A DNA stretch of 43,720 nt from a virus. The position numbers and the translations under genes were made by a program. The DNA is taken from the IMG/VR virus record IMGVR_UViG_3300043313_001521, one strand, 5' to 3'. Shown one piece after another: positions 314 to 23,189 of this stretch; positions within the stretch are counted from its first letter, which is position 1, and each line of letters starts with the position of its first letter. The notes below the pieces were generated by a model, which worked only from the letters and a program-made list of their open reading frames with translations, searched no databases and was not told where the DNA came from.

Positions 314-1063
314 CTAGCGGAGACGGCTGCGGGTTCGGGCCGCGTTGGCCCGTGCGATCGCGCCGGACTCCTTGAGCTCTTTCAGCCGTTCACGCAACAT
401 GGCGTCGGACGAGCCGAGCTCTTCGAGGCGGGCCTTGTTGATGGCCCGGCCCGGGTCGTTGTCGGTCAACACGGCGACGGTCGTGCACTTACAGCCGTGG
501 TGGCCGAAGGTCGCCGACTCCTGGGTGCGGTACATCTGGACAGACACGACCCGGCACCACTCACACGCCTTGGCGCTGATGACCCGGCGCCACCCCCGGA
601 CCTTCGTGCCCGGCTGGTTCATGCGAGCGGTGGCGCCGTCGTTGGTGGCTGAGTAGCCGGTCATCTCGGCCATGCTGGCCCCGGCCTCTTTGGCCTCGGC
701 GTAGGGCATGCCTTCGGACAGGTCGTGCCAGGTGCGCAGGAACGGACCGTCCCACTCGATGGTGGGGGCGACCAGATCGGATGCGGTGATGGCCGAGCCG
801 GTCATCTCCGACAGGTAGGCGGCGGCCAGGTCGGCGGCCTCGTTGACGCCGGCGGTCGTGTACGGGCTGGCCTCGGCGATGAACGCTTCGATGTCGGCCC
901 GGTCGGTGCTGGCCAGGTTGGCGAAGATGTCCCGCAGGGCCAGACCGACCTGTTCGGCGAGCCCGTCGAGCTCGGTGATGTAGGCGAGCGTCAGAGCGAT
1001 CGCTTCGGCTTCGGTGGTGGCGGCTAGAGCGGCGGCCGGGGTGATGTCGGTGACGGTGGCCAT
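314..1063 (-). CDS. MuF-like head morphogenesis / minor capsid protein
   Basis: It lies directly downstream of portal with a start/stop overlap at 1063. The C-terminal Cys/His cluster (CEWCRVVS...FGHHGCKCT) is typical of the SPP1 gp7/MuF family. Confidence 0.7.
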   Translation of the reverse strand: MATVTDITPAAALAATTEAEAIALTLAYITELDGLAEQVGLALRDIFANLASTDRADIEAFIAEASPYTTAGVNEAADLAAAYLSEMTGSAITASDLVAPTIEWDGPFLRTWHDLSEGMPYAEAKEAGASMAEMTGYSATNDGATARMNQPGTKVRGWRRVISAKACEWCRVVSVQMYRTQESATFGHHGCKCTTVAVLTDNDPGRAINKARLEELGSSDAMLRERLKELKESGAIARANAARTRSRLR

Positions 1064-2514
1064 CAGTTGCCCGTGGCGAACTTCTGCTCGATGTTGCTAC
1101 CGGGCGTGCCCTTGTTGGCCAGCAACTTCTTGCGCTTCTCTTCGTCTTCGTCGGGCACCTCGGTGATGCCGAGCGCCTTCTGCCGAGCCAGCTCCCGGGC
1201 CGCCTGGAGCTTCGCCTTGGCCGCTTCGGCCCGCCACAACTGCAGGTCGGCGCCGGTCGTGTCCGGCACCTTCTCCCACAGGGCGCTGGGTGGGATCTCC
1301 AGCATCGTCGCCATCTTGCCCAGGGCGTCGACCTGTTGAGCGATGGAACGTGGGTCGGTGTCCCGCCACCAGATCTGCGCTTCGGTGTCCTGGGCGGCGG
1401 TGGCGTCCCCGGCCGCTACGCCGGCGAGACGGAACGCCTGCTCCCACGCTTCACCGAAGAGCACCTGATGGTCGGCGACCTTCTTGGCGAGCGTCGTATC
1501 GGCCGCGAGGAGCGCTTCGGCGCTGAGGTTCACGAGGTCGCCGAGCAGGTAGTGCGGTGGCGTCTGGGACAACAGCCCGTAGACCCGCAGCGACTGCTCG
1601 ATCGCTTCCACGATGTTCTTCAAGTTGGCCTCGGGGAGCGAACCGAACTTGGCGTTCTCGTCCCCGGTGATCCAGAGCGACTTGGCGAAGGCGGCCAGGT
1701 CGACCATCGGGTTCCCGTCGGCGTCGGTCTGCATGTAGAGACCCGTCGCCCACTTCTGCGGGGCCGCCGCGTAGGTCTGCGCCACCAGCAGGTCGAAGAC
1801 CGTTTGGTTGAGCCGGTCCTGGATCGGGATGCAGGGACCGACCTCACCGTCGGGGTATCGGGTCAGGTTCCAGTGGTTGCGGAACGGCACGATCGGGCAC
1901 TCGCCGAGGTCGTGGACCGTCATCTCCTCGATGATCACCGACGCCCCCGTGGAGCGCACCACGTAGCGGGCGTGGTCATCGAGCACGTGCCAGATCTGCA
2001 GATCCTCCTGGCTGGTCACCTCGGCCCGGGTGCCCTGCTTGAGCGCCAGGAACGGCCAGTCATCGGAGTGGTCCTCAAAGCCCAGCCACCACTCGGCCGG
2101 GGACACGGGACGCATCAACGGGACCGGCTCGCCGTCCTTCTCGGCCGGCAACACCATGCAGCCGGCGTAGCCGTACTTGGCCGCTTCGTCATAGAGCGCC
2201 TTCTGGCGGGCGTCGAGCCCGTTGGCCTGCCACCACTCCCACTGCGGGGCGTTCTCTACGCTGATCTTCGACGGCCGGAACCCGTCCACGATCAGGCGTT
2301 GGGTGAGCGTGTTCACGACCAGCCGGGTCAGGTTCGTGGTGGCCCGGGAGACCAGCTCCTTGAACTCCCGGGTGGCCGTCGCCGGCTCGTAGGGCTTGCG
2401 CTGGATGCCCGTGTAGTAGAGCTCGAACCACGAGAGCCGGGACCACTCCATCTGAGCGACCGGCCCCCACGTCTTGACGGCGTCAGCGATCTCACGTTCA
2501 CCGTTGAGACGCAT
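1063..2514 (-). CDS. Portal protein
   Basis: About 483 aa, taken from the internal Met (MRLNGEREI...) of ORF 1063..2559. It sits between terminase and MuF, and its size and acidic C-terminus are typical of SPP1-type portals. Confidence 0.85.
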   Translation of the reverse strand: MRLNGEREIADAVKTWGPVAQMEWSRLSWFELYYTGIQRKPYEPATATREFKELVSRATTNLTRLVVNTLTQRLIVDGFRPSKISVENAPQWEWWQANGLDARQKALYDEAAKYGYAGCMVLPAEKDGEPVPLMRPVSPAEWWLGFEDHSDDWPFLALKQGTRAEVTSQEDLQIWHVLDDHARYVVRSTGASVIIEEMTVHDLGECPIVPFRNHWNLTRYPDGEVGPCIPIQDRLNQTVFDLLVAQTYAAAPQKWATGLYMQTDADGNPMVDLAAFAKSLWITGDENAKFGSLPEANLKNIVEAIEQSLRVYGLLSQTPPHYLLGDLVNLSAEALLAADTTLAKKVADHQVLFGEAWEQAFRLAGVAAGDATAAQDTEAQIWWRDTDPRSIAQQVDALGKMATMLEIPPSALWEKVPDTTGADLQLWRAEAAKAKLQAARELARQKALGITEVPDEDEEKRKKLLANKGTPGSNIEQKFATGN

Positions 2515-2577
2515 CAGAGTTTCCGATCTGCTCACGGGCGTCGGATGTGGCCAACACACGCCGGGTCGATGGGCGCA

Positions 2578-4191
2578 TCAGACCCCCACGAACCAGGACG
2601 GCCGGCGGGCGTTGAGCATCCCCTTCGAGATGCAGTCCCGGCGGGCCTCAGATGAGATGACCGCAGCCATGGCGGCGTCGATCTTGTTGGGCGAGTGCGG
2701 CCGGTCCTTGGTGAGCGTGTACAGGTTGCGGCCGTCGTCATCGGTGGCCGGCAACAGCTTGCGCCGGGCGTTGCCGATGTGGCGGGCGAAGACCGAATCG
2801 CCGTCGTGGGTGACATCACCCGATGCCACCGCCGACACGTAGAACCCGACGGCGTCACCGAGGCGACGAGAGCGCAGGTTCGTCACGAAGTCCGCCACCC
2901 GGTCCTTGCCGTAACGGCCCTCCCACCGGTCGGTCAGATGCTCGATCTTCTGGGGGTCCGAGTAGATGAGCCCGACGTTGAACCGGTCGAAGGCTTCCAT
3001 CACGGCGGCGTCGGCCAGCTCGAAGTCGTGCTCGTAGTCGTCACCCACGCCGGCCGGGCGCTCCAGGATGCACAGGGGCCACTGGTGGAACCCGTCGACC
3101 GTGGTGGCGATGATGGCCAGAGCGTCCTGGTAGCGGGCGCCGTCCACGCCGATGGCGATGAGCGTGCCGTCGGGGACGACCAGGCCGGGCCTTGCTGCGT
3201 TGCGCCAGGCTTCGAGGTCGAAGGCGACATCTTCGCCGGCATGCACCCGGTTGAGAAAGAACCGCTCGGCCTGGGCCGGGTCCCGTTTGAGCAACGCCTC
3301 AATCTCCACGTCGATACGGTCCAGGTCGACCCAGCCTTTCCACGTCTTGCCGTTGCGCACCGAGTCGCCGTAGGCGTGGCGCATCGCCTTGCGCCGTTCG
3401 GCCTTGTTGCGCACCGACCCACCGATGGGCGGCGGATAGTCGACGTAGACGCCCACAGGGTTCTCGTAGGTGTCCTGAGCAACGCTGTCATCGACCAGCG
3501 CCCAGGCGTTGGTCGTGTCCAGGAACCGCCCACCCATGCCCGACAGGTTCCTGCGCTGGTTGTCAGCCAAGCGCTTGCCGCCGTTGCGCTCGACCCAACC
3601 GTGGCCTTCGTCCCCGAGCACGAAGGTGACACGCTGGCCGAGCCGTGAGAGCGCCGACGCCGTCACCGGCTCGATCAGGCCACCGCCGGGCAGGTTGATG
3701 CGGGTGATGCCCGTGTCGGGGAGCTCAGCGTCCAACGGACCGAAGCGGATCATCGGCAGGAGAGCCCGGTAGACGTTGGCCGTCTGGTCCTCGCTGATGG
3801 CCGTGATCTGGATGTGCGGTGTGGGCCACGGACGACCCACTGGCCGACCGTCGGAGTCCCACCCGTCAGGCAACGCCGGGCCGCACGCCTCAAACAGGAT
3901 GATGGCCGCCGAGAACGGACCCTTGCCCCACTTCTGGGGCCGCACCAACAAGGACCCACGCTCATTGTGGAAGCGTGGGCCGGACCACTTCATGGACTTG
4001 CCGGTCGGCTGCAGCCGGTAGTGGTGGACCAGGAACTTGACCATCTCGTCGGTCAGGCGGAACGGCTCGCCGAGCTGGTCGCCGTCAGGGATCACGCACA
4101 TCTCTTCGATCCACTGCCAGGCGACGATGCCCAACGTGGGGAAGTCGAGGCCCGTCTCTGCCAGCTCAGCGTCCGCTCCCCGCCAGGTCAT
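2578..4191 (-). CDS. terL: Terminase large subunit
   Basis: About 537 aa, starting at Met107 of ORF 2578..4509 (MTWRGADAELAE...) with a TGATG overlap on the upstream gene. Position and size fit an ATPase/nuclease terminase. The upstream 106 codons overlap the methylase gene. Confidence 0.85.
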   Translation of the reverse strand: MTWRGADAELAETGLDFPTLGIVAWQWIEEMCVIPDGDQLGEPFRLTDEMVKFLVHHYRLQPTGKSMKWSGPRFHNERGSLLVRPQKWGKGPFSAAIILFEACGPALPDGWDSDGRPVGRPWPTPHIQITAISEDQTANVYRALLPMIRFGPLDAELPDTGITRINLPGGGLIEPVTASALSRLGQRVTFVLGDEGHGWVERNGGKRLADNQRRNLSGMGGRFLDTTNAWALVDDSVAQDTYENPVGVYVDYPPPIGGSVRNKAERRKAMRHAYGDSVRNGKTWKGWVDLDRIDVEIEALLKRDPAQAERFFLNRVHAGEDVAFDLEAWRNAARPGLVVPDGTLIAIGVDGARYQDALAIIATTVDGFHQWPLCILERPAGVGDDYEHDFELADAAVMEAFDRFNVGLIYSDPQKIEHLTDRWEGRYGKDRVADFVTNLRSRRLGDAVGFYVSAVASGDVTHDGDSVFARHIGNARRKLLPATDDDGRNLYTLTKDRPHSPNKIDAAMAAVISSEARRDCISKGMLNARRPSWFVGV

Positions 4192-4898
4192 CAGTCCCGA
4201 GTCCAGAGGTGTTCGGGACGTGGGGTCGTGCTGTAGGCGTGGTGCACGGTCGCCTGCCGTTCGGTCGACCAAATGGACTCCCAGCCCTTGGGTGCATCGA
4301 ACTCGGAGACGAACACCCGGGCGCCGTTGTCCACCCACAGGGCCATGGTCGACCAGAACTGGTCGACGTCGAACTTGAAGCTGGTGCCGGCGTAGGACAT
4401 CGCATCGGCGTAGGGCGGGTCGCAGTAGACCGTCGCCTTGGGCTCGGGCACGATGTCGAGGTAGTCGGAGTGACGGATGGTGGCGCCGGTCAGGTTCCGG
4501 CGCTTGCACAAGGTCGCCCGCTGCGCTTCTGCGAGGTAGTCACGGCCAGCCGACTCGGCCACCGGCCCGTAGCCGCCGAACCATTTGCCGTTGTAGGAAG
4601 CGGCGAAGCCCGCCCACGCACGGAGAGCTGACGGTTCAGAGCTGGATCTCAGCTCGTCGTAGCGGTCGTGTGAGAGATGGCAAGGCGGGACCCACCCGTC
4701 AACGACGTCCCGCCAGAGCTCCACGACATCGGGATGGGCATCGGAAGGGACGGACCGCTCATACCACGGCACCATCTCGCAGGCCACCGACGCGGCGCCC
4801 AGGAACGGCTCGATGTAGGTGTGCCGCTCGACGCCGGAACCGATGATGACGTCGGCGATGCGGCTGGCCGTCCGGGCCTTGCCGCCGATGTAGCGCAC
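4191..4898 (-). CDS. dam: DNA N6-adenine methyltransferase (Dam / D12 class)
   Basis: N-terminal RYIGGK...IEPFLGAASV (SAM-binding FxGxG-like) and a DPPY catalytic motif. GTG start overlaps the terS stop, and its own stop overlaps the terL start. Confidence 0.8.
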   Translation of the reverse strand: MRYIGGKARTASRIADVIIGSGVERHTYIEPFLGAASVACEMVPWYERSVPSDAHPDVVELWRDVVDGWVPPCHLSHDRYDELRSSSEPSALRAWAGFAASYNGKWFGGYGPVAESAGRDYLAEAQRATLCKRRNLTGATIRHSDYLDIVPEPKATVYCDPPYADAMSYAGTSFKFDVDQFWSTMALWVDNGARVFVSEFDAPKGWESIWSTERQATVHHAYSTTPRPEHLWTRD

Positions 4899-5362
4899 TA
4901 GTCCCGCATGTTCTTCAGCCGGTTGCGGATGTCGGTCACCCCGGCGCTCGTCGGCATCTCCTGCGCCGGCTCGTCCGCTACGAAGGCGTAGTGGAGCTTG
5001 GCGGCGGCGGCAGGGGTGAGCCCGAAAGCGTCGTCCATGCGCAGGATCAGCGGCAGGATGCGCACGGCCGTGTCGGTCGCCTTCTGGTCGCCATCGGCGT
5101 CACCTTCGAGCGCTTCGACCCACTGGTCCTCCAACTGGGCTCGCTTGGCCAACGGCTCGATGAAGCCCGGATGCCAGAGCGTCGCCTGAGGTGTGGCCCA
5201 TGCCCATCGCCACCAACGCCTGCCCGCAGCCCCCAAGCGCACCGGACACTTCGGCGGCGTGCCCTGCCGGCCGGTGAGCGGCAGTCGGTGCGCGGCCTGA
5301 GACGCCGAGACATCCCGTCTACGGCGCCGTGCATCCGGTGGCTTGGGGACTGGGTTGGCCAT
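4898..5362 (-). CDS. terS: Terminase small subunit, P27 family
   Basis: 154 aa lying between the HNH and terminase large subunit genes. Basic N-terminus, then a GRRWWRWAW...DDAFGLTPAAAAKL pattern typical of P27-type small terminases. Confidence 0.65.
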   Translation of the reverse strand: MANPVPKPPDARRRRRDVSASQAAHRLPLTGRQGTPPKCPVRLGAAGRRWWRWAWATPQATLWHPGFIEPLAKRAQLEDQWVEALEGDADGDQKATDTAVRILPLILRMDDAFGLTPAAAAKLHYAFVADEPAQEMPTSAGVTDIRNRLKNMRD

Positions 5363-5634
5363 CAGCTCTTGGTGGGCTTCGAGCTATGGGTGGTCGGGTG
5401 GGTGCTGCCCTTGGGCTTGTCGCCGGTCTCGGTCGACCTACGGCTGGGGCCGGCGTCGGGAGCGTCCTTGCCGCTGTACTTCTCGGCCGCCTCCTTGTTG
5501 AGCTGCGCCTGTTGCTCCCGCTCTTCGAGCTGGCGCTTGTTCTCGGCTTCGACCTGCTCTTCCCTGAAGCCCTCAGGCTCCGGTTCGGGCTGGGGTCCCG
5601 TGCCCGGAGTGCCGGGCAGGCTCGGATCGCTCAT
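5362..5634 (-). CDS. Hypothetical, highly charged Pro/Glu/Lys-rich protein (90 aa)
   Basis: Internal Met of ORF 5362..5943. ATGA overlap with the HNH stop at 5631-5634, and its end abuts the terS start. Confidence 0.55.
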   Translation of the reverse strand: MSDPSLPGTPGTGPQPEPEPEGFREEQVEAENKRQLEEREQQAQLNKEAAEKYSGKDAPDAGPSRRSTETGDKPKGSTHPTTHSSKPTKS

Positions 5635-5954
5635 GGGCGGTATCTCCCTTGCGTGGAGCCCCCTTCGTGACCGGACTTGGCTCTGTCGCAGTCCAGGCAG
5701 ATGGCGGCCAGGTTGGATAGGCGGTGGTCGTCTCCGGCGATGACGTGGTCGACCCGGTTGCCGTAGCGCCCACAGATGTGGCACGTGTAGCGGTCCCGTC
5801 GGAGCACCTGACGGCGCAGGCCGTTCCAGTTGGCCGGGAGTCGCTCCCGACGGGTCGATGTGGCATAGGGGGCCGGTGCGTGGGTGTCGCAATAGGTCGT
5901 TGACACCAGGACCGGGCACCGGGGTTCGGCGCAAGGTCCCCATTTGCGAGGCAC
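5631..5954 (-). CDS. HNH endonuclease (terminase-associated)
   Basis: CHICG...VDHV...NL..ICLDCDRAKSGHEG motif. GTG start with a GAGAGGTGGG Shine-Dalgarno sequence. The HNH-terS-terL arrangement is typical of cos phages. Confidence 0.85.
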   Translation of the reverse strand: MPRKWGPCAEPRCPVLVSTTYCDTHAPAPYATSTRRERLPANWNGLRRQVLRRDRYTCHICGRYGNRVDHVIAGDDHRLSNLAAICLDCDRAKSGHEGGSTQGRYRP

Positions 5955-5991
5955 CTATGGCCCACCTCTCACCACTAGCCGTATGACAGGG

Positions 5992-6021
5992 GTTATAGAC
6001 CTAAAGCTTGGTTGATGTCTA
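5992..6021 (-). promoter_or_regulatory. Candidate housekeeping-sigma promoter for the HNH/terminase/structural operon
   Basis: Read on the minus strand: TAGACA (6021-6016), an 18-nt spacer, then TATAAC (5997-5992). This sits about 30 nt upstream of the HNH ribosome-binding site and GTG. Confidence 0.35.
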
Positions 6022-6134
6022 GGGCTAAGTGCTTGTGGACATCCCTGGGGACAAGCAGGGGGCTAGCGAGAAACCCCTGGTCCTGTACCTGAGTTGTATG
6101 TCCAAACAAACACAGTGGTGCATATAGAAACAGA

Positions 6135-6158
6135 TGCCTGTATTAAGAAATACAGGCA
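6135..6158. promoter_or_regulatory. Perfect palindrome tgcctgtatt-aaga-aatacaggca (operator or hairpin)
   Basis: 10-bp arms that are exact reverse complements, separated by 4 nt, located in the AT-rich control region. Confidence 0.6.
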
Positions 6159-6461
6159 GGTCTTTGAGCTATAAATCAGCTTGTCCATACAAAGAAGCCC
6201 TGGCCTCACCGGTCAGGGTGGCGCACGTTTGGGGGAGACCCCCCTCCCCCAAGTTGGGGAGACGGAAATGGGCTCGATGACCCATTGATCCGCCTGCGCC
6301 AGAGTCGTCCGGCCTATTTATGAGCCGTTTCTGCGGCTGGCACGAGCCCGTTCATCCGCTAACCGATCAAGCGCTAACCCTCACGGCTAACGAGAACGGT
6401 CCGACCGGTTGCTCAACACCCCGAGCCGGCACCGAGCCGGCCGAGCACCGGAGAGCAACCA

Positions 6462-7145
6462 ATGCACGCAACCGACATCCTCGCCTACACCTACGAGTCC
6501 GAGCTCTACTGCGCCGACCATGGCCGCGACCTGGACGTGCAGCTGCACGAGAATTGCCCCGAGCCGGACACGTGCACCGAGTGCAGTGCTCACCCGGTCT
6601 TCGCCGATACGTGCGACCTGGACATGATCGAATACTGCAGCCACGGCCATTCCTTCTGCGGCAACTGCGGCTCGGACCTGGACCATGAGGACATCAACGG
6701 GCACCTCGGCCGGTGCGGCAACTGCGGCACCGAGTCGGTCTTCGTGGACGGCCACGGCTTCGACTACTGCGGCTCGGGCATCGCCGCTTGGGAGGACGTG
6801 CGAGAGACGCACAAGGTCCAGGTGTACGGCATCTCGGCCTACTGCCAGACCGGCTCGGACGGCTACACCACCGTGGACGCCGTGGTGGACGTGTCCGGTC
6901 TGGACCTCACCAAGCTGCACGCCTACATCGCTTGGCTCGGCCACGATCCCTCGGCCGGCACCGTGCTCATCCTGGCGGAGAGCTTCGAGGACGCCTCGGG
7001 TGAGGTCGACACGCACTTCGAGGACGCGCTGGACGTCTCTCTGGCCGCCGATGAGGATGAGGCCGAGGGCATGCGCTCGGACCACCGGATGGACACCGTG
7101 GTGGCCGAGGTCCGTACCGACCAAATCTGGTTCACCACGAAGTGA
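6462..7145 (+). CDS. Cys/His-rich acidic protein of unknown function (227 aa)
   Basis: High GC3 frame with a GGAGAG ribosome-binding site upstream of the ATG. Twelve Cys, including two CGNCG motifs, and an Asp/Glu-rich C-terminal third. It has its own terminator and is one of very few plus-strand genes. Confidence 0.75.
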   Translation: MHATDILAYTYESELYCADHGRDLDVQLHENCPEPDTCTECSAHPVFADTCDLDMIEYCSHGHSFCGNCGSDLDHEDINGHLGRCGNCGTESVFVDGHGFDYCGSGIAAWEDVRETHKVQVYGISAYCQTGSDGYTTVDAVVDVSGLDLTKLHAYIAWLGHDPSAGTVLILAESFEDASGEVDTHFEDALDVSLAADEDEAEGMRSDHRMDTVVAEVRTDQIWFTTK

Positions 7146-7177
7146 CAGACCGGTCACCGGCCGGAGAGCAGGAAGTA

Positions 7178-7207
7178 GACGACCCACGGTTCCGACCGTG
7201 GGTCGTC
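7178..7207 (+). terminator. Intrinsic-type terminator hairpin for gene 6462..7145
   Basis: gacgacccacgg-ttccga-ccgtgggtcgtc forms a perfect 12-bp stem. It lies 33 nt after the stop codon and is followed by ctcttcgtg. Confidence 0.7.
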
Positions 7208-7229
7208 CTCTTCGTGAGCTTGGACCGCA

Positions 7230-7800
7230 CACCTAGACCACGAGCCAGACCACGAGCACCGGGTGAGCCGGTGCTAGTGGCGCGTCCGGCACGCGGGTCA
7301 CCGGCACGCTCTCGAGCTCGAGCACCCGGTGAGGATGTCCAGGACGGTCGGCATGAGCCAGACCACGGCTACGGGCACGCTGGACCTCACCGGCACCCGT
7401 ACGGCTCACGGGCTGGCTCACCATGATGATCAGCACCGGCACCGGCCGGACCACGAGCCGCGCTGCAGCTGGACGGGCACGAGCCGGACCTCACCGGCCG
7501 CTGGACCTCATCGGCCACGAGCCGGCACCCGGACGCGCCTACGGGCTTACGAGCCGGTGCTCATCGGACCTGGACGGTTCACCGGGTGCCGGACCTCACC
7601 CGTACCTGGACCTCACCGGCCGCTGGACGGCCACGGGCACCTGGACGGCCACGAGCCGGTCCTACGGCCACGAGCCGGTCCTACGGCCACGAGCCGGTGC
7701 TCACGGGCACCTGGACGTCCTACGGGCTCACGAGCCGGTGCCTACGGTCCTACGGGCTGGCTCACGGGCACGAGCCGGTCGACCGGGTGCTGGACGGTCG
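7230..7800 (+). repeat. Array of short degenerate repeats, all in one orientation (CACGAGCCGG, GGACCTCACCGGC, CCTACGG, CTGGACGG), including 19-nt tandem units
   Basis: Seven exact CACGAGCCGG copies (7478, 7516, 7650, 7669, 7688, 7729, 7769) plus four near copies. Two perfect 19-nt units at 7649-7686. No stop codons in any plus-strand frame over about 7430-7920. Confidence 0.85.
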
Positions 7801-7935
7801 GCGGCTCCGGCTCCGGCCGCCCACAAAGGGCCGTTCGGCCCACGCCATTGGACCTACCCTCGACGGGTGTCACCCGCTTGGAGGTTGTCGAAGCAGGCGC
7901 TGGGGCGCCGGCCGAATCTCCTTAGAGGGCCGATT

Positions 7936-7980
7936 CCCGGCGATTTTTCGACTCTTTCCTGGCCCGGCGATTTTTCGACT
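7936..7980. repeat. Two perfect 18-nt direct repeats, cccggcgatttttcgact, spaced 27 nt start to start
   Basis: The copies at 7936-7953 and 7963-7980 are identical. Each contains a T5 tract, which is unusual in this GC-rich genome. Confidence 0.9.
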
Positions 7981-8240
7981 TTCAGATTCGGGCTCCAATA
8001 AACTGCCATCCCTGTGATTCGTTGACCTTCCGACACCACTGCTCCGACATGCGCTAGCGTGCAGGCAGGGCAAGCTCACTTCCTTGCCTCGGTGGGCGCC
8101 GGGATCAGAGCGGGCGTCGCCGGTAGGTCTGGACCCGACGCCATCGGTTGCGTCCCTTCCGCGAGGGATGCTTCAGACCAGCCCTGCCGGTGGTGCTCCC
8201 CGGCGCCCACCACCACCAGCTAACAGGTGGCGGGGATGGC

Positions 8241-8288
8241 GAGAGCCCCCGGCGGTCGGAGCCGAACAGCCGACCACCGGGGGCTCTC
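8241..8288. other. Long imperfect hairpin (12-bp outer stem plus 6-bp inner stem)
   Basis: gagagcccccgg pairs with ccgggggctctc, and the inner ggtcgg pairs with ccgacc. It lies inside the gene desert and has no flanking U-tract. Confidence 0.7.
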
Positions 8289-8490
8289 TGACGCTACCGA
8301 CCTGAGCATGGGATACCAGGCCGGCAGCGGTTCATCCCAACTACCCGACCGAGAGCCTACGCACGCCTCAGACACCCCCGTGGGGATGTCGAGCGCCCTG
8401 CCCGACCAGCAACCCCCCACGGCGCTCTACGGGCTATGCAGGCCGTGCTGGCCAGCAAGGGGTGGGGGTGGCACCGGGGGGTGAGCATAA

Positions 8491-8570
8491 GGGGGAGCTC
8501 CCCCAGGGTCCTCCCCCAGGGGGGATCTCCCCCAGGGTCTTCCCCCACGGCAGGGGACATCCCCCACCCC
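8491..8570. repeat. About 30-nt tandem repeat (2.6 copies) built from G4-5/C5 hairpins
   Basis: Units are gggggagctcccccagggtcctcccccagg, then ggggatctcccccagggtcttcccccacgg, then a partial caggggacatcccccacccc. There are six C4-5 tracts on the plus strand (G-tracts on the minus strand). Confidence 0.75.
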
Positions 8571-8580
8571 TGACGCGGGA

Positions 8581-8614
8581 GAGCCCCGGCGCAGATGCCC
8601 AGGCGCCGGGGCTC
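8581..8614. other. Hairpin with a 12-bp perfect stem and a 10-nt loop
   Basis: gagccccggcgc-agatgcccag-gcgccggggctc. Confidence 0.7.
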
Positions 8615-8655
8615 CCATGGAACCAACCATCAGGAAAGGCCAGCCTAGACAGCAA

Positions 8656-8685
8656 GGCACCCCCGGGGGAAGGGCCGGGGGTGCC
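8656..8685 (-). terminator. Hairpin terminator downstream of the M23 peptidase operon
   Basis: ggcacccccgg-gggaaggg-ccgggggtgcc forms a perfect 11-bp stem. It lies about 50 nt beyond the stop at 8738 in the minus-strand direction. Confidence 0.6.
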
Positions 8686-8737
8686 GCGGTGAGACTGACC
8701 ATCCAGTTGCGGGGGACCGAGACCCGCGGCCCGAATC

Positions 8738-9484
8738 CTATCTGTTGATCACCGGGTAGTTGTAGAGCACCCGGCGCTCGTCATCGGTGAGGTCGTCCAC
8801 GTTGAAAGCGGACGGGCTGGCGGCCGGTGGGTTCATCGGTTTCTGCGGTGCGATGAGCCCCACCTTCTGGGCCAGGGTCACCTCGGCCGGCTCGGACATG
8901 TTCAACCGGTGGGGCACGCCTTCGACCAACGTCACGGTGAACTGCCCGTTGTTGTCGGTGAACAGGATGTGCGGGGTCGAGTGGGTGGCGAACTTGCTCA
9001 CCAGCGCGTTGCTGATGATCATCCGCATCTGGTTCCAATCGGCTTCGGTCATGCCTTCATCTCCTCCGGGCGTGAGCCCAAACAGTGGTGCCCGGTCCAA
9101 GTAGCCGGTCGGGTCGATGCGGGTGCCGTGCTCCCACAACTCCAGGTGCGCGTGGCTGCCGGTGGACGAGCCGGTGCTGTCGATGTAGCCGATGGTCGTG
9201 CCGGCGGTGACCCACGTGCCGGACCCGACGGCGAAGCTGTCGTGATGGAACGACTTGAACCGGTCGCCTCCGGCGTCACACCACAGCCAGTTGCCCGCCC
9301 CGCTCTCGTATCCCGTCGTAACGACGCCGTCCCATGGAGCGACCACAGGTACCCCCCAAGGTGCGCCGTAATCGACACCCCCGTGGAACGAGCCCTGCGC
9401 CCCGGTGATGGGGTCGACCCTGTAGCCATAGCCCGACGTCTTGCCGTAGCTCTCCAGCAGGGGGAAGTAGGTCAGCTCTCGCAT
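8738..9484 (-). CDS. M23 family metallopeptidase (putative endolysin) with an uncharacterised C-terminal domain
   Basis: Taken from the internal Met (MRELTYFPL...) of ORF 8738..9730. It carries HxxxD (FHGGVDY) and HxH (GSHAHLEL) motifs. Confidence 0.8.
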   Translation of the reverse strand: MRELTYFPLLESYGKTSGYGYRVDPITGAQGSFHGGVDYGAPWGVPVVAPWDGVVTTGYESGAGNWLWCDAGGDRFKSFHHDSFAVGSGTWVTAGTTIGYIDSTGSSTGSHAHLELWEHGTRIDPTGYLDRAPLFGLTPGGDEGMTEADWNQMRMIISNALVSKFATHSTPHILFTDNNGQFTVTLVEGVPHRLNMSEPAEVTLAQKVGLIAPQKPMNPPAASPSAFNVDDLTDDERRVLYNYPVINR

Positions 9485-9500
9485 GGGCGGCTCCAGACGT

Positions 9501-9854
9501 TCAGGTCGGCCGGCACGCCCAATGTAGGCCGGTCTGGCCGACGAGCAGTGGTTGCCCGCACACCCGGCACTTGGGCTCGGCGTTGGCCTTGGCCTGAGCC
9601 TGGCGTTCGGTCGCCCGGATCTCTTTCCACGGCCAGTCGGCGACCGGCTTCTCACCGATGAGCTCGGTGCCGATCCACGCTTCGAGCGGGAGCTCCCGGG
9701 GCTTGGGCTGGGTGGGGTCGGCCCGGTCATGGTCGGCCATCACGTGCCCGCAGCACAGGCCGCAATAGGACCGGCCCCAGGTGGCGAGCACGAGGGGCCG
9801 GGTCGGGGTGGCGGGGCAGTCGCAGCGGGCGCAGCGGGCGAGCGGTCCGTGCAT
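9501..9854 (-). CDS. Cys-rich (zinc-ribbon-like) hypothetical protein (117 aa)
   Basis: Internal ATG preceded by AAGGAG. Motifs CARCDC...CGLCCGH and CRVCG. Confidence 0.65.
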   Translation of the reverse strand: MHGPLARCARCDCPATPTRPLVLATWGRSYCGLCCGHVMADHDRADPTQPKPRELPLEAWIGTELIGEKPVADWPWKEIRATERQAQAKANAEPKCRVCGQPLLVGQTGLHWACRPT

Positions 9855-10458: not shown

Positions 10459-10953
10459 CTACTGGTCGAGCATCTCCATGAGCTTGGCCCGGGGGATCAG
10501 GATGCGCCGACCGAACCTGACGGCGGGGATCGTGCCGTCGTTCGCCGCGGCGTAGGCCGCCGACCGAGAGATGCCCAACAGCTCGGCCGCTTCGTCCACG
10601 CTCAAGGTGAGCGAGTCGGCGGCGGGTCGGGACTGACCGGGCTGGTGCACGTTCAGCCTGATGGCCACCTGGGCGCCGTCCACGCTGGCGATGTGGTTGC
10701 GGGCGAGCCGGGCGATAGCGGAGCGGAGCTTGCCGGGCGCTACACCGATCTCGGCCGCCAGGCCGTTGACCTCGTAGCTGGTGGCTTCGCCCTCGGAGCG
10801 CATGTCGCCGGCCAGCAGGTGGGCCAGCAGCACGGCGGTGGGACCGAGCACCGGCGCCCATGCCCGCAGGAACTCGTCGGTGTCCGTCCCGACCGGTCCG
10901 GTCAGGTTGGGGTGGGCACTGATGGTCACGTGGGAAGTCTCCATGGACGGCAA
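10459..10953 (-). CDS. DNA-binding protein with a C-terminal excisionase/MerR-type helix-turn-helix
   Basis: The C-terminus LSVDEAAELLGISRSAAYAAANDGTIPAVRFGRRILIPRAKL matches the excisionase-family HTH pattern. Confidence 0.7.
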   Translation of the reverse strand: MPSMETSHVTISAHPNLTGPVGTDTDEFLRAWAPVLGPTAVLLAHLLAGDMRSEGEATSYEVNGLAAEIGVAPGKLRSAIARLARNHIASVDGAQVAIRLNVHQPGQSRPAADSLTLSVDEAAELLGISRSAAYAAANDGTIPAVRFGRRILIPRAKLMEMLDQ

Positions 10954-10968
10954 CGTACTGGAGCGGCA

Positions 10969-11307
10969 CTAGACGAACCGCACCCGGGGGTCATCCCCCG
11001 GCATCTCGGGGGCAAAGGCGGCCAGCACGTAGGTCGGGCACGGTCCCCGGTACCGACGCCGGATGGTGAGCGTCTCGCAGTGGTGGGCGTCCCGGTAGTA
11101 GGCCACCCGCGGGGTCCTCCGACGCCAGACGTAGAAGTCGATGGTGCCCTCATCGACCAGGACGGCGAACAGCGTCCAGTACCAGTACGAGCCGGTGCGC
11201 ATGATGGCATCGTCCAGCCACGCCTGCGCTTCGGTCGCGGTGGCCTCGTCCATCTCGGCGACCATCTGGTGCCACGCCGGTGCCGTCAGCACCCACCGCT
11301 CAGCCAT
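10969..11307 (-). CDS. Hypothetical protein (112 aa)
   Basis: Internal Met (MAERWVLTAP...) of ORF 10969..11394, in a high GC3 frame packed tightly against its neighbours. Confidence 0.6.
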   Translation of the reverse strand: MAERWVLTAPAWHQMVAEMDEATATEAQAWLDDAIMRTGSYWYWTLFAVLVDEGTIDFYVWRRRTPRVAYYRDAHHCETLTIRRRYRGPCPTYVLAAFAPEMPGDDPRVRFV

Positions 11308-11524
11308 GGCCGTTCCGTCTCCGGTGGACGACGACCCGCACCAGGACGAGCGCCTCGTGGATGTCCTCGGTCTTGCCGAACACCAGGCACACACCGAGCG
11401 CCCCGACCACGTACCAGCCGTCGAAGAGCACGGCGGTGGCGGTGAGCAGGCAGATCAGGCCGATCATCTGCAGGGTGAGCGCCGGGATGGGACGGTCGAA
11501 CAGGGACAGCTCTTCGTCGGTCAT
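11300..11524 (-). CDS. Small membrane protein (74 aa)
   Basis: C-terminal part of ORF 11300..11743, starting at MTDEELSLF. Two hydrophobic helices. ATGA overlap with the upstream gene at 11521-11524. Confidence 0.6.
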   Translation of the reverse strand: MTDEELSLFDRPIPALTLQMIGLICLLTATAVLFDGWYVVGALGVCLVFGKTEDIHEALVLVRVVVHRRRNGHG

Positions 11525-11841
11525 GACGCCAGGGTCGGCGCTGGGCCGGGGTCGTCGCCGTCGTGACGGCCGGGGGGCAGGGGCACGCTCATCTGGCGAC
11601 GGAGGTAGCGCCAATCGAGACCCATGTCGGTGGCGTAGCGGTCGGCCAGAACGGAGATGACCGTGTTGGTCGGGATGCGGGCGTTGACGGTCTTCTGCAG
11701 GATGCTGAGCTGACGATCGGTGCCGGGATCGGTGTCGAGCCACTGGCCAACCAGGGCGCCGAGGACGGTCCCGTGCTCCGACAATGAGCGCAGGGTGCGT
11801 TTGACGAGCAGGTCCAAATCTTCAGGTTTGGGGGGGTTCAC
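11521..11841 (-). CDS. Hypothetical protein (106 aa)
   Basis: GTG start preceded by GGAGAA. High GC3. It is the first gene after the large inverted repeat. Confidence 0.65.
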   Translation of the reverse strand: MNPPKPEDLDLLVKRTLRSLSEHGTVLGALVGQWLDTDPGTDRQLSILQKTVNARIPTNTVISVLADRYATDMGLDWRYLRRQMSVPLPPGRHDGDDPGPAPTLAS

Positions 11842-11870
11842 GGTGGGTGTTCTCCGCTTCTCTCAGGTTT

Positions 11871-11950
11871 GTATAGGGACACGGGTACATAACCGCCATA
11901 TACCAAACGTCTGTTCACATTATGGCGGTTACGTACCCTTGTCCCTATAC
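11871..11950. repeat. 80-bp inverted repeat (30-bp arms with 28/30 matches, 20-nt AT-rich loop)
   Basis: Left arm gtatagggacacgggtacataaccgccata (11871-11900) compared with the reverse complement of the right arm (11921-11950), gtatagggacaagggtacgtaaccgccata. Confidence 0.9.
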
Positions 11951-11954
11951 GCGT

Positions 11955-13469
11955 TCAGAGGGCCAAATAGGGGCTGACTTGGTACTTGGGACCGGGTGGC
12001 CGACCACCCTTTGTGCTCGGTTCTGGGTCAGGTAGGCGGCGGATATAGCCCGACCCTTCAAGCAGTTCTAAGACTGGCTTCAGGTCTTCCACCGTTGGCA
12101 ACCGGTGGCGGCACGCACGGTGAGCCTCCCGCCGGGAGAACACCGTGATGTCGGAGTCCTGCGCCCACTTGATGAGCGCCTTGGCGTTGTCTTGCAGGGG
12201 ACCGTCGGCCATCACCTCGAAGGCGTAGAGCGCGTGAGCGGTCAGGTATTCGGCGATCCTGATGGCGTCGTTGACCGGGCCGACCTCGACGTTCTTGCCC
12301 CAGCCCCGGGCGATGTTCGTGGCCAGGTGCAACAGGCCGGCGATGCGGGCCGTGTGGCCCACCAGCTTGCCCGCCCAGTCCCCGATGTGGCCGAGGTCCC
12401 CCATCTCCCGCAGACGGGGCTCCAGGGCCTCCTGGAAGCGCTGCAGGGCAGCACGGGCTTCGGGGGTGAAGACCAGCGGCACCCGGTCGAAGCCGGCGAG
12501 GGTGGCCACCAGGGTCCGCAGGCTCCCGGCAAAGACCTCTTCGACCTCAGCGGGAACCGGCTCAGGGTCGGAGCGGCGATAGCCCACGTTGTTGGCCGGC
12601 ACGCTCCACAGGAACCGGCCGAGCAGGCCACGGCCCCGGGCGCCGTCGATGGCCAGGAGTTGAGAGAGCACCACGGGCTGCACGGTGAGCCCCAAGGTGA
12701 GGGCCGGCTTCTGGATGATCTCCGGGTCCCGGCCTTTGCGGTCGACTCGGATGGACGAACCGACGTGACCCTTCAGGTAAACCCCCAGGTTCGGACCCTT
12801 GCTGGAGTACCGGCCCGCCATCATCGAGAACACCTCCCCTTCGTCGGAGAACATGGCGATCCGTCCGCCCTGCTCGGCCAGCAGGCTGGTGAGGGCTTCG
12901 GGGGTGGCGTCGTCCACCAGCAGGCGGGGCATGGTGGGCACGACGATGGCCTCAGCCATCGCCGCCTTGGCCGCGGCGAAGTGGGCGGCCTCATCCCGGG
13001 CTTCATCGCCGGCTCGCTCGGCCTCTTGCATGGCCTTGGCGGCGTCGGCCTTGGCGATGGCCAGACGGACCTTGGCCTCATGCACCTCGGGGTTGGCCTC
13101 TTCGATGGCCGTCCGCTCGTAGTCGACCAGCGGTGCCGTCACCCGCATGAAGACCGGCGTCTTGCGGGAGCCCGGCGCCATGGCGGTGGCGGTGAACAGG
13201 TTGAGCTCTTCGTCGTAGCCCGGCTTGATCTCCACGTAAGCCCGACCCCCGGCGGCGGCGGCCAAGGCGGTGAGCGCCAACATGGCGGGCAGGTCGACCG
13301 GCACCTGCACGGCCTCGGCGAGCGCCACCACGTAGGCGTTGATCCACGGCGGGAGTCGGTGGGCGGGGAAGATCGGGGGTTTGCCGGTCTGACCGAGCGG
13401 GACGGGTGGCTCCCATCCATCCCCGTTGGCGCGGGCCTGGCGGGCAATGTCCTCGGCGTAACGGCTCAT
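11955..13469 (-). CDS. DUF3987-type replicative helicase / primase-associated protein
   Basis: 504 aa with a degenerate P-loop (APGSRKT). The C-terminal winged-helix-like tail ending in GGRPPGPKYQVSP is characteristic of DUF3987 phage and plasmid replication proteins. Confidence 0.65.
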   Translation of the reverse strand: MSRYAEDIARQARANGDGWEPPVPLGQTGKPPIFPAHRLPPWINAYVVALAEAVQVPVDLPAMLALTALAAAAGGRAYVEIKPGYDEELNLFTATAMAPGSRKTPVFMRVTAPLVDYERTAIEEANPEVHEAKVRLAIAKADAAKAMQEAERAGDEARDEAAHFAAAKAAMAEAIVVPTMPRLLVDDATPEALTSLLAEQGGRIAMFSDEGEVFSMMAGRYSSKGPNLGVYLKGHVGSSIRVDRKGRDPEIIQKPALTLGLTVQPVVLSQLLAIDGARGRGLLGRFLWSVPANNVGYRRSDPEPVPAEVEEVFAGSLRTLVATLAGFDRVPLVFTPEARAALQRFQEALEPRLREMGDLGHIGDWAGKLVGHTARIAGLLHLATNIARGWGKNVEVGPVNDAIRIAEYLTAHALYAFEVMADGPLQDNAKALIKWAQDSDITVFSRREAHRACRHRLPTVEDLKPVLELLEGSGYIRRLPDPEPSTKGGRPPGPKYQVSPYLAL

Positions 13470-14113
13470 GCGTCCTCGTCTTCCCGTGTGGCATGGGCGA
13501 TCGTCTCGCCCACCTGTCCGGCATCCAGGCCGGCGTGGTCGCCGAGCTCGATGAGCGCATCAATCACGTCGGCATCGGTGCCGTTCTCACCCAAGAGGCG
13601 CCCGAAGGCGGCGGCAGTGGCGATCACGGCTTCGGCGACCGCAGCTCTGCGGGCGTCGGCTTCAACCAGGGCGGTGACATCCACGTCGAGCCCGTCGAGA
13701 CGGTCGACCAGTTGGGCGATGCAACGCCGGGCGTCGGCCACCTCGATCACCCGTCGTACCAGGCTCTCGACGGGCGTGCCTGACTGAGCGGTGACAAGTT
13801 GAACCAGCCAGCTCAGCTCGACGTCAGTCATCTCGGCGATGGCCTCGGCCCGACCGACGCAACCGTGCACGGCCAGGCGGGTGTCCTCTTCGAGCCAGTC
13901 GAGCTGCAGGTCGGCGTCGTTGATGTCGGCCACCCAGGTGGCGACCACGATCACGTCGTAGATGCGGTGGTCGTAGAAGTCGGCGGGACCCACTGCCTTC
14001 TCGATGACGAGCGCCTTCTGCCGGTCCACGATGGCGGCGCCGGCCAGGGCCATCTCGGCGGCGGCGTCGAGCGGGATGAGCCGGTTGCCGTCCACGTGCG
14101 TCCAGCCGATCAC
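13466..14113 (-). CDS. DnaB N-terminal-domain-like protein
   Basis: GTG start in a GTGA overlap with the upstream stop. IPLDAAAEMALAGAAIVDRQKAL...GPADFYDHRIYDVI resembles the DnaB N-terminal domain signature. It is coupled to the DUF3987 gene. Confidence 0.5.
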   Translation of the reverse strand: MIGWTHVDGNRLIPLDAAAEMALAGAAIVDRQKALVIEKAVGPADFYDHRIYDVIVVATWVADINDADLQLDWLEEDTRLAVHGCVGRAEAIAEMTDVELSWLVQLVTAQSGTPVESLVRRVIEVADARRCIAQLVDRLDGLDVDVTALVEADARRAAVAEAVIATAAAFGRLLGENGTDADVIDALIELGDHAGLDAGQVGETIAHATREDEDA

Positions 14114-14703
14114 TGGGGGGCCTGGACGTCGTTGGGCCACGGCACCGAGCCGGTGCGGTGGTACAGCTCGAGCTCCTCGATGCGGGGCAGGCGCTCCCAG
14201 CGGCGCACGCACCCGTAGCACCAGACGCACAACAACATGGGCACCGGCAGCCGGTCGCCCACGGTCGTCGGCCTACGGATGTCCGAGCGGGGCGCCACCC
14301 ACCGGGGACCACCGGCCGGTCCCGTCGTCCGGGCACACGACTCGCACCCGGGTTCTTGCACGAGACCGAGGTCCCGGCGGTGGCGTTGGCTCACCCGGGT
14401 CGGCACGGGGTAGCGGTGCAGGATGGCCGTGGCCTTGGTGAGCTCGACCGCTGCGGCCTTGAGCGCCCGGTCCAGGTCCCGCTCGTCGGTCACGGCCTGG
14501 TCGGGTCTCATGCCGGCGTAGACGGTGTCGTGGCGCATGGTGGCGGCCGGGCCTTCGTAGGACCGTGCCCGCAGGTTGCCCTGGAGCTCGCGCATGCGGC
14601 CCATGACGGTGCTGTCGCCGTCGATGGTGTCGAGGATCTTGGCGATGAGGTCGGCCCGGGAGGTGAGCGCCTGGGCGAGACGGATGCGCTGGCGGTCGTT
14701 CAC
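14110..14703 (-). CDS. Hypothetical protein with a C-terminal CxxC...CxxC zinc-ribbon-like motif (197 aa)
   Basis: C-terminal portion of ORF 14110..15315, starting at GTG in a GTGA overlap with the dpdA stop. High GC3. Cys motifs are CESC and CVWCYGC. Confidence 0.65.
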   Translation of the reverse strand: MNDRQRIRLAQALTSRADLIAKILDTIDGDSTVMGRMRELQGNLRARSYEGPAATMRHDTVYAGMRPDQAVTDERDLDRALKAAAVELTKATAILHRYPVPTRVSQRHRRDLGLVQEPGCESCARTTGPAGGPRWVAPRSDIRRPTTVGDRLPVPMLLCVWCYGCVRRWERLPRIEELELYHRTGSVPWPNDVQAPQ

Positions 14704-15479
14704 GTTCCCTCCCACAGGTCGGGCTGTTGGATAGACATCCGGGCGAGCACCCGTTCCCGCCACGCCATCGCCCAGATGGGGCAGTTGGCGCAGTTGCCGG
14801 TGCCGGTCTTGCCGTGGGAGCACCCCGGCAGGGGCGGGTTGCGGCGGGCCTCGTAGGACCACGCCATCGAGTCGGCGGACACGAGGTGCCGGCCGTACAG
14901 GCCCAACCCGACGCTCTTCACCCCGAAGCCGTGGCAGTTGATGCCGGCGTCCTTCAGCTCCCGGAAGATGGTGCCGATCTCCGCGGTGTCCTGCCGGCGG
15001 CACACCGAACCCACACCCACGACGGGCTCGGCGGCCAGGTAGATGCCCTGACGGGCGTAGCGGTCGATGCAGGCCAGGTAGTCGGCGAGCACCCAGCCCT
15101 GCAGGACAGGGATGAATGGCACCTCGGGAGCGTGCTCTCGCAGCAGGGACAGGTTCTCGACGGTGAGCCCCTGGTGGCGGTCCACGCTGAGCCCGGTCTT
15201 GGCCAGCATGTGGGGCTCGCACATCCAGTCCATGGGGGCGGCCCAATCCATCTTCCCGATGTCGGTCATGTACCGGCGGACAGCGTCGATGTAGTCGGCC
15301 GGCTCGGTGCGCCACTTGCCGTACATGGTCAGCTCGGAGAACCCGCCGCTATCGAGCGCCCAGCGGGTGATGGCCACGGGCAGGCGTTTGCGGTGGCCGA
15401 GGCGACGGTGGGAGACGAACAGGGGGACGTTGAGACGTTCCAGCCACACGGGCAGGTGGGTGCCCAGGTAGAACCTCAC
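14700..15479 (-). CDS. dpdA: DpdA-like DNA 7-deazaguanine transglycosylase (TGT superfamily)
   Basis: TGT landmarks occur in order: LDSGGF, PVLQGW, VGVGSVC, HGFGVK, ADSMAWS, and a C-terminal cluster CSHGKTGTGNCANC. The start is set at GTG 15479 (GTGA overlap with the upstream stop); an alternative start lies at 15542. Confidence 0.75.
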   Translation of the reverse strand: MRFYLGTHLPVWLERLNVPLFVSHRRLGHRKRLPVAITRWALDSGGFSELTMYGKWRTEPADYIDAVRRYMTDIGKMDWAAPMDWMCEPHMLAKTGLSVDRHQGLTVENLSLLREHAPEVPFIPVLQGWVLADYLACIDRYARQGIYLAAEPVVGVGSVCRRQDTAEIGTIFRELKDAGINCHGFGVKSVGLGLYGRHLVSADSMAWSYEARRNPPLPGCSHGKTGTGNCANCPIWAMAWRERVLARMSIQQPDLWEGT

Positions 15480-15719
15480 CCGGCGCCCCGTCCCGGCCTG
15501 GCCCGGCGTAGGGCGTCCAGGCGGCGAGCCTCGTTGATCCACGGTCGCAGGTTGATGGTCAGGTCGGGGTCGGTCAGGTCCCTACCTTGGAGCATGAGAC
15601 CGAGCGAGTCGATCAGGGCGGTGAAGGACACGCCGTAGTCGGCCATGAGCGCCCGGTAGGTGTCCTCGGCCTCTTCGGTGCAGCGGGCGAGCATCGCCGT
15701 CTTGGCCAACGGCATCACG
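15476..15719 (-). CDS. Small HTH-like protein, paralogue of 23328..23540
   Basis: Internal Met (MPLAKTAML...) of ORF 15476..16036. It shares GVS.T.L...G..L.G..LT and a basic AR..DA.RR tail with the plus-strand protein beside int. Confidence 0.6.
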
Positions 15720-23182: not shown

Positions 23183-23189
23183 GCCTTGT

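Follow-up and report, generated by a model that had tools for sequence, protein, structure and literature searches.

In the virus genome with IMG/VR record IMGVR_UViG_3300043313_001521, positions 7230–7800 are occupied by an array of short direct-repeat words. (The whole 43.7-kb stretch is called the window here, and coordinates are positions in it.) We are highly confident that the array consists of hypermutable, non-coding repeats and that it is a conserved part of the right-end control region in a group of uncultured, temperate soil actinophages with cohesive (cos) ends. Modules in this region follow a set order: cos, an operon read toward the array, a terminator, the array of ~0.5 kb, a block with a TTGTC-type box, A/T-tract repeats and finally a promoter or a small gene. 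Through slippage, units are added to the array and lost from it. As to why such a sequence is kept, we tentatively favour, as a possible rather than a probable explanation, a slippage-prone, multi-copy platform for protein binding, of the iteron or titration type, that would serve replication or regulatory control.

Make-up and turnover of the array

Two features define the array:

7230–7800, plus strand: word array of ~570 bp (571 nt), non-coding
7645–7701, plus strand: three tandem 19-nt units ACGGCCACGAGCCGGTCCT, two of them perfect; the sole clean tandem part of the array

The array is a mosaic of four or five word families, dense in its core (7430–7800) and looser at 7230–7430, where inverted GCACCGG/CCGGTGC pairs occur. 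The dominant motif is a 12-mer, GcCACGAGCCGG, present in 11 copies that all lie on a single strand at irregular spacing; the other families are CTGGACG/CTGGACC (10 copies), CAC(C/G)GGCA (11 copies) and CCTACGG. A first-pass annotation had listed several of these words, and its list proved accurate in nearly every detail. All seven exact copies of CACGAGCCGG are in place (7478, 7516, 7650, 7669, 7688, 7729 and 7769), and a search of the 43.7-kb window found no further exact copy and no copy on the opposite strand. Three of the four copies that had been called near matches differ from this word at one position (7239, 7452 and 7548), but the fourth, at 7251, has two mismatches. Copies of GGACCTCACCGGC at 7382, 7486 and 7608, together with its variants at 7503 and 7591, were also recovered, as were the words CCTACGG, CTCACGG and CTGGACGG. 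The two perfect 19-nt units are present as described, and Tandem Repeats Finder reports a 19-nt period over 7645–7780 (6.9 copies, 71% match).

Redundancy of this order sets the array apart from the rest of the genome. Seven-mers with at least four occurrences cover 73% of 7230–7800, whereas 500 first-order Markov simulations averaged 0.9% and never exceeded 13.5%, and segments of the array hold the top rank for word redundancy genome-wide. Pairs of identical 8-mers within it are direct in 397 cases and inverted in 59. The GC content is 72%, in a genome of 68% GC, and the words of the array are confined to 6341–7800. The array is reproduced base for base in contigs of other samples (L094 and L135) and is therefore not an assembly artefact.

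Natural variation shows how the array changes. Two contigs from two further samples, L134 (4.9 kb) and L136 (1.6 kb), lack one 19-nt unit (7645–7663) and are otherwise identical to the window, with zero substitutions. The related phages L045 and L070 share a vocabulary and have flanks that are 75–88% identical, and their arrays can be aligned in fragments only. Unit turnover is therefore much faster than point substitution. The first-pass annotation had not anticipated such minisatellite-like behaviour. The tandem part at 7645–7701 varies by one unit in nature, in the manner of a variable-number tandem repeat (VNTR), and the rest of the array is mosaic; the earlier judgement that this is no simple satellite holds for the irregularly spaced families of the array as a whole, though not for its tandem part. 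Three contigs (L094, L137 and L138) end inside the array and two (L135 and L136) end at or just beyond its right edge.

We are also highly confident that the array does not encode protein. The stop-free stretch to which the first-pass annotation had drawn attention is real (zero stops in any frame of the plus strand from 7427 to 7923, 496 nt), but it is unexceptional: comparable all-frame stop-free stretches run for 508 nt at 26825–27333 (minus strand, within a coding region) and for 439 nt at 36985–37424 (plus strand). The vocabulary of the array holds no stop triplets, and the stretch is therefore a by-product that carries no independent evidence; nor is it conserved, as the arrays of relatives have stops on both strands (six in L004 and three in L045). 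A plus-strand gene, or a set of overlapping genes, of 140–200 amino acids has the three open frames in its favour and nothing else. In the three open reading frames (ORFs) over the array (7329–7925, 7423–8001 and 7586–8017), GC content is flat across codon positions (0.67–0.73), whereas genuine genes of the window have values of 0.82–0.91 at third positions (GC3) and 0.43–0.55 at second positions (GC2). No codon or GC3 periodicity was found across ~7350–8700, ORF 7329–7925 has no Pfam match, a tblastn search with the right-end proteins of relatives found no decayed gene in the left part of the array, and the natural 19-nt indel polymorphism would break any reading frame. The coding reading, to which we attach next to no probability, is effectively refuted, in agreement with the first-pass annotation. 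That annotation was equally right to set aside clustered regularly interspaced short palindromic repeats (CRISPR): there is no repeat–spacer structure, the longest regular period is 19 nt at 71%, and the 8–13-nt words abut without spacers.

Arrays at the same locus in related phages

Relatives were recovered from IMG/VR and JGI metagenomes using the large terminase and the M23 peptidase as anchors, and the sizes of their arrays were judged by eye from the sequence. Their contigs include IMGVR_UViG_3300000545_000001, IMGVR_UViG_3300005543_000007, Ga0307309_10000018 and C688J18823_10003292. Four further distinct phages carry non-coding arrays at the same locus:

L004: ~510 nt; words GGCTCGTS (16 copies), CCTGCAGG and CTACGAGCCC
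L101: ~480 nt; words cGGCTCGTG (21 copies) and CCTACCGG (6 copies)
L045: ~480 nt; words TGCTCGACG (10 copies), CCAGCCCG (12 copies) and ACGCCCGT (6 copies)
L070: ~525 nt; words GCCCCGT (14 copies) and GGGGCCCACCA (5 copies)

All five arrays, that of the window included, lie between the end of a cos-proximal operon, which is read toward the array, and a homologous conserved block, and their flanks are ~60–75% identical or cannot be aligned. Each has a single dominant motif in 10–21 copies, all in one orientation. The first-pass annotation had suggested looking for conserved copy number or sequence in related actinophages; in these four phages size and place are kept, and the words are related without being the same. 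After the array, the relatives share the order GACCTACCCC..., a TTGTC-type box and then two to four A/T-tract direct repeats, with a small gene following in three of them.

The orientation of the words differs between phages. L101 carries the word CACGAGCCGG exactly reverse-complemented, and L004 has the 7-nt core of this word, ACGAGCC, inverted in the same way. The partner word CCTAC(C)GG, in contrast, has the same orientation in L101 as in the window. Because one word is inverted and its partner is not, a block inversion does not explain the pattern, and discrete sites fit it better than RNA does. On the comparative evidence, an element with many sites that acts as DNA is favoured over one that acts as RNA.

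In 1.26 Mb of related phage DNA, comparably strong non-coding arrays occur only at this syntenic locus, with the exceptions of an array in L014 and a 60-nt repeat in L078. The L014 array (5146–5475, in a distant phage with a large terminase that is 33% identical) spans 330 nt of non-coding sequence, is made up of short G-rich words with GGC at their ends (among them GTGAGGC, TTGGCAGGC and GGGCATGGC) and is located between two structural-module genes, just 5′ of the gene for a ClpP-like protease. Its vocabulary and place are different and its style is similar.

Wider searches returned no counterpart. A pattern scan of IMG/VR found no match to the exact 19-nt unit, and the pattern CACGAGCCGG-N4-30-CACGAGCC matched 56 loci there, which is about the number expected by chance according to our estimate; the loci inspected are unrelated and include a coding (EHEP)n repeat in L169. 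Another of them lies on L187, an unrelated low-GC viral contig, where a 19-bp unit, ATATAACCAGCACGAGCCG, is repeated six times in tandem between genes (7075–7185). This textbook example of an iteron-style array happens to contain the CACGAGCC core, and was picked up solely because the search pattern selected for that core. The L101 array had no match among INPHARED phages, the PLSDB plasmids gave a single chance hit of 47 nt, and the literature searched describes dispersed actinophage motifs only and no such arrays. The first-pass annotation had recognised no equivalent element, and we found none in Rfam, INPHARED, PLSDB or that literature.

Genome setting and the cohesive end

The window ends overlap by 69 identical bases, and the assembly is therefore circularly closed at ~43.65 kb. 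The minus strand carries nearly all of its genes, and those for head and tail continue across the window ends. The large serine integrase and other non-structural proteins (a protein with a Gp3-like recombination-directionality domain, a HTH_17/excisionase-family protein, a DUF3987 helicase and DpdA) identify it as a temperate actinophage. With the array region and half of the genome as queries, INPHARED gave no nucleotide match among isolated phages. Among isolated phages, Streptomyces phage Kromp has the closest large terminase (43% amino acid identity); the right end of this cultured phage is densely coding, with no counterpart of the array. For the host, no close relative was found among bacterial genomes searched at one representative per species.

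Five samples carry this phage (ERZ27257278, ERZ27257255, 3300028708, 3300028754 and SRR8552939). Contig termini locate the cohesive end, with ten independent contigs terminating within 6201–6212. Five assemblies from five samples, all with an identical 227-amino-acid protein, start at 6212 (GTCAGGGTGG...). Among relatives, the contigs of L001 and L002 run as far as the position homologous to 6201/6202, and that of L003 ends within ~25 nt of it. The shared termini therefore place the cohesive end at ~6202–6211, and the array lies 1.0–1.6 kb in from the right terminus of the linear genome. The features of the window to which we refer are as follows:

1063–2559, minus strand: portal
2578–4509, minus strand: large terminase
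4898–5362, minus strand: small terminase
6202–6211: cohesive-end (cos) site inferred from contig termini, ~GGCCTCACCG, ~10 nt
6341–6452, plus strand: small cluster of the array word family (CACGAGCCC, CTCACGG, CCCGAGCCGG, CACCGAGCCGG and CCGAGCACCGG), 130–250 bp from cos
6462–7145, plus strand: cos-proximal gene for a Cys-rich, very acidic protein of 227 amino acids; GC3 of 0.91; no other real gene lies between cos and the array
7178–7207, plus strand: terminator-like hairpin closing the 6462–7145 gene; 13-bp stem, 4-nt loop, weak T-run, folding z of −5.9
7850–7897, plus strand: conserved post-array block, GGACCTACCC ... CCGCTTGGAGG TTGTCGAAGCAGG, common to L004, L045 and L070
7936–7953 and 7963–7980, plus strand: a pair of 18-nt direct repeats, CCCGGCGATTTTTCGACT, containing an A/T tract and spaced 27 nt apart
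8090–8580: conserved non-coding block common to L004 and L043, with the G5-palindromes GGGGGAGCTCCCCC (8491), GGGGGATCTCCCCC (8520) and GGGGACATCCCCC (8553)
8738–9730, minus strand: M23 peptidase, encoded by the final gene in the main (minus-strand) direction of transcription
10459–10953: HTH_17 protein
11955–13469: helicase
13466–14113: candidate DNA-binding protein
21680–23329: large serine integrase

The cos-proximal gene is transcribed toward the array and itself contains array words (CTGGACCTCACC at 6900 and ACGGGCACCT at 6697). Its product has no Pfam match above the cut-off and no PHROG or NCBIfam family; a homologue is encoded by L004 (30% identical) and a partial match was found in L043-type contigs. 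Mini-arrays of (GAGCAC/ACGAGC)n also occur in L004 and L043, ~70–220 bp from the genome ends and thus cos-proximal like the 6341–6452 cluster. In the same two phages, genes of the cos-proximal operon (L043 9900–10420; L004 7900–8210, minus strand) are each preceded by a near-identical sequence, ...CCTTCCC...TCAAGGAGACTTCCCGATG, which recalls the start-associated sequences of cluster K mycobacteriophages, and array words (CGAGCCC and GCCCTGCAG) occur in the intergenic gaps of this operon and in parts of its coding sequence.

The hairpin that the first-pass annotation took for a terminator upstream of the array is real and strongly folded, but its T-run is weak and a terminator scan did not call it. 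At the equivalent place L004 has a canonical hairpin with a T-run. On the other side of the array, the conserved block holds the reverse of a TTGTCCA-type box in L004 and L045. The A/T-tract repeats, 136 nt 3′ of the array, have the lowest GC content of the local non-coding region, and homologous repeats are found at the same place in L101, L045, L070 and L004 in two to four copies, some of them near-palindromic (AAATCCCGGGGAAATTTC); they look like operators or a DNA-unwinding element. The palindromes of the 8090–8580 block, to which GGGGGAGACCCCCC at 6231–6244 (20 nt from cos) is related, are possibly operator sites or an uncharacterised RNA, with no match in Rfam. A promoter scan found no sigma-70-type promoter in 5800–8900. 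Rfam returned zero matches at the gathering score for the whole window and chance-level hits only (E at least 0.06) for 5900–8800, and a tRNA search found none.

Three further regions of the window deserve mention. An apparent plus-strand gene at 11141–11566 was rejected as spurious, being an antisense ORF of low-complexity sequence. A DpdA homologue (14700–15542, minus strand; Pfam PF23859, E = 5e-98) hints that the phage DNA carries 7-deazaguanine modifications; the parts of three relatives that were fetched showed no such homologue. Word redundancy is second highest at 31300–32000, a region that is coding on the minus strand, resembles the repeat region of L003 (3800–4200) and is probably a segment of a repetitive structural (tail fibre-like) protein.

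Possible roles of the array

If the array is a protein-binding platform, its words, and chiefly the CACGAGCC(GG) core, would be recognised by a DNA-binding protein with sequence specificity, supplied by either phage or host. The array would then most likely lie within a replication-origin or replication-control region, or alternatively might tune the adjacent operator/promoter block. The natural gain or loss of a 19-nt unit shows that the number of such sites changes readily. As in iteron arrays, multiple direct repeats of one motif are present in non-coding DNA (11 copies of GcCACGAGCCGG, and 10–21 copies in relatives). The array of L101 is directly adjoined by about ten units with a TTGTCCA core at 10-bp spacing (7330–7480, minus strand as displayed), and these are followed by three or four GGCGATTTTTCGA repeats that are homologous to window 7936–7980. 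The units resemble TTGTCCACA, the actinobacterial DnaA-box consensus, and such a cluster was found at no fetched locus other than L101. Direct repeats followed by DnaA boxes and then by A/T-rich repeats form the classical layout of an iteron origin. The DUF3987 helicase of the phage is of a candidate initiator type: its nearest database matches are annotated as DNA helicase or primase/helicase, and the primase-helicase initiators of P4 and of Staphylococcus aureus pathogenicity islands (SaPIs) recognise short, octamer-type, irregular iterons.

A number of observations weigh against the platform. No DnaA-box cluster lies beside the array of the window, the genome-wide count of such boxes is at chance level, and the window's sole DnaA-box-like cluster (three one-mismatch boxes, 6034–6189) is beside cos. 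Classical iterons are 17–22 bp long and regularly spaced, and the words here are 8–12 nt long, belong to several families and are irregularly spaced. The first-pass annotation had them recurring at about one helical turn, and this was not borne out: Rayleigh tests on the positions of the dominant motif at periods of 8–13 nt gave P = 0.07–0.54 across the five arrays, none of which has regular spacing or helical phasing, and the autocorrelation of the window array has weak peaks only (at 6, 11–12, 19 and 41 nt). The array is 4 kb away from the helicase gene and has a GC content of 72%. Nor does the helicase qualify as a co-varying initiator, as its lineages, C-terminal domain included, divide into window, L004 and L044 versus L045, L070 and L101, and the vocabularies divide into window, L004 and L101 versus L045 and L070. 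The Cys-rich protein was rejected as a binder because it is acidic and has no homologue in L045, L070 or L101, and no array-binding protein was identified between these two candidates. Neither GC skew nor GC3 skew located an origin. A large near-perfect palindrome at ~11866–11951 (GTATAGGGACACGGGTACATAACCGCCATA ... TATGGCGGTTACGTACCCTTGTCCCTATAC), in locally lower-GC DNA that separates the helicase gene from the gene that follows its end, is an alternative candidate for an origin or operator. L043 and L044 have no large array at the main position. Finally, pure slippage would equally be expected to give a uniform orientation, a mosaic structure and polymorphism in copy number.

As the main rival reading, it is possible, although we think it somewhat doubtful, that the array is a tolerated minisatellite, near-neutral DNA that slippage or unequal recombination has built in a dispensable spacer from words seeded by neighbouring sequence, with no sequence-specific function. 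The one-unit difference of L134 and L136 without any substitution is what such a process would leave, as is the finding that L045 and L070 share words and not unit order despite their similar flanks; the absence of phasing and of a co-varying protein also fits. Array words occur inside adjacent coding sequence (at 6531, 6697 and 6900 of the window, and in small genes of L045 and L070), L101 has amplified a quite different, AT-richer word here, which suggests an expansion-prone locus, and L043 manages without a large array. However, phage genomes are compact and deletion-biased, and arrays of 480–570 nt nevertheless persist at one position in five lineages with flanks near saturation. The neighbouring non-coding stretches at 5944–6461 and 7800–8737 have no arrays, and the CACGAGCC core is kept in copies with differing flanks and in both orientations across phages, which slippage does not readily yield.

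The inverted word also bears on whether the array could act as RNA, transcribed as the 3′ part of the cos-proximal operon or by late read-through across cos and serving as a structured, stabilising or decoy RNA. The array is directly 3′ of a transcribed gene, L045 and L070 have no clear terminator before it, many of its words pair into small local hairpins (GCCCCGTCGGGGC), and the plus strand is predicted to fold with modestly greater stability than shuffled sequences (z = −2.45). Strong hairpin terminators nevertheless stand upstream of the array in the window and L004, the minus-strand fold is not significant (z = −1.38), Rfam was empty for such an element even at E = 1, and inversion of the dominant word in L004 and L101 is unlike a strand-specific RNA. 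The array sequence, moreover, cannot be aligned between relatives. We consider an RNA-level role quite unlikely, and a role in packaging very unlikely indeed. In the latter case the words would bind the small terminase or a cos-associated factor and aid recognition or termination at the cohesive end. Distance is the argument for it, with the array 1.0–1.6 kb and the word mini-cluster 130–250 bp from the inferred cos and with the (ACGAGC)n mini-arrays of L043 and L004 ~70–220 bp from the genome ends; in T7, short-repeat arrays (SRL/SRR) adjoin the terminal repeats. Known cos accessory sites, however, are small in number and are found no more than ~200 bp from the nick on the terminase-gene side, a gene and a terminator stand between the main array and cos, and relatives with quite different vocabularies, or without array data, have large terminases that are 85–95% identical.

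Comparison with known systems yields partial likenesses. Theta iteron arrays (lambda ori, P1 incC/incA, F and RK2) are also clustered, non-coding, lineage-specific direct repeats in one orientation that lie near A/T-rich repeats and, as in L101, near a cluster resembling DnaA boxes, and P1 iterons flank repA as the word family of the window flanks a gene. They differ in having 17–22-bp units, whereas the window has 8–12-nt words of several families, about 50 words in 0.5 kb, irregular and unphased, with no adjacent initiator gene and no helicase co-variation found. The octamer/hexamer iterons of P4 ori/crr and of SaPI origins, to which primase-helicase initiators bind, resemble the array in being very short, irregular, element-specific repeats, and this phage encodes a DUF3987-type helicase; the repeats of P4 crr can, moreover, sit kilobases from the initiator gene. 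Unlike these, the array has no central A/T-rich segment between two iteron sets and is much longer, and the C-terminal domain of the helicase does not track the vocabulary. With minisatellites and VNTRs such as the mycobacterial interspersed repetitive units (MIRU), the array shares unit-number polymorphism in otherwise identical genomes and concerted turnover that is faster than that of the flanks, but it is a mosaic of short words rather than one tandem unit, and its position and size are kept across diverged phages. The SRL/SRR arrays of T7 are likewise irregular copies of short words near a phage genome end, with a function that is unsettled, but T7 has direct terminal repeats and not cos, its heptamers number about 12 copies and the phages are unrelated. 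Plasmid centromeres (R1 parC, the pSM19035 heptads and tubC) are arrays of 7–12-bp direct repeats bound cooperatively by small DNA-binding proteins; theirs are contiguous or helically phased, whereas the window array is unphased and the phage has a large serine integrase. No ParA, ParM or TubZ was found among ~35 window proteins in a scan that was not exhaustive.

A resemblance of ACGAGCC/TCGAGCA to the heptamer of SARP regulators (TCGAGCG) was considered and dropped, as the 11-bp spacing that defines SARP sites is absent. Actinophages are also known for dispersed motifs, namely the stoperators of cluster A, the start-associated sequences of cluster K and the inverted repeats of clusters O and EG (PMC7302621, PMC4351075). 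These resemble the words of the window in being short, phage-specific and in one orientation, but they are scattered at promoters or gene starts, unlike words that keep to a single 6341–7800 region.

A broader proposal, which we regard as unlikely, is that such arrays form a previously undescribed class of non-coding phage word arrays that are tunable by slippage and recruit or sequester sequence-specific DNA-binding factors to control replication or the choice between lysis and lysogeny. The number of sites would differ within natural populations, as in a viral contingency locus. The factor might be host DnaA for the TTGTCCA units of L101, and for the window, L004 and L101 another protein with CACGAGCC as its recognition site.

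For metagenomics of soil, the array is a strain-typing marker for this phage and a recurrent breakpoint of short-read assemblies. If it is a tolerated minisatellite, 0.5 kb of repeat DNA has been kept at one locus of compact genomes over deep divergence, and that would need an explanation. If it is the binding platform that we tentatively favour, it would offer a handle on replication or regulatory control in temperate soil actinophages that have no cultured member, and would be a rare viral control element that evolves through the gain and loss of units on population timescales.

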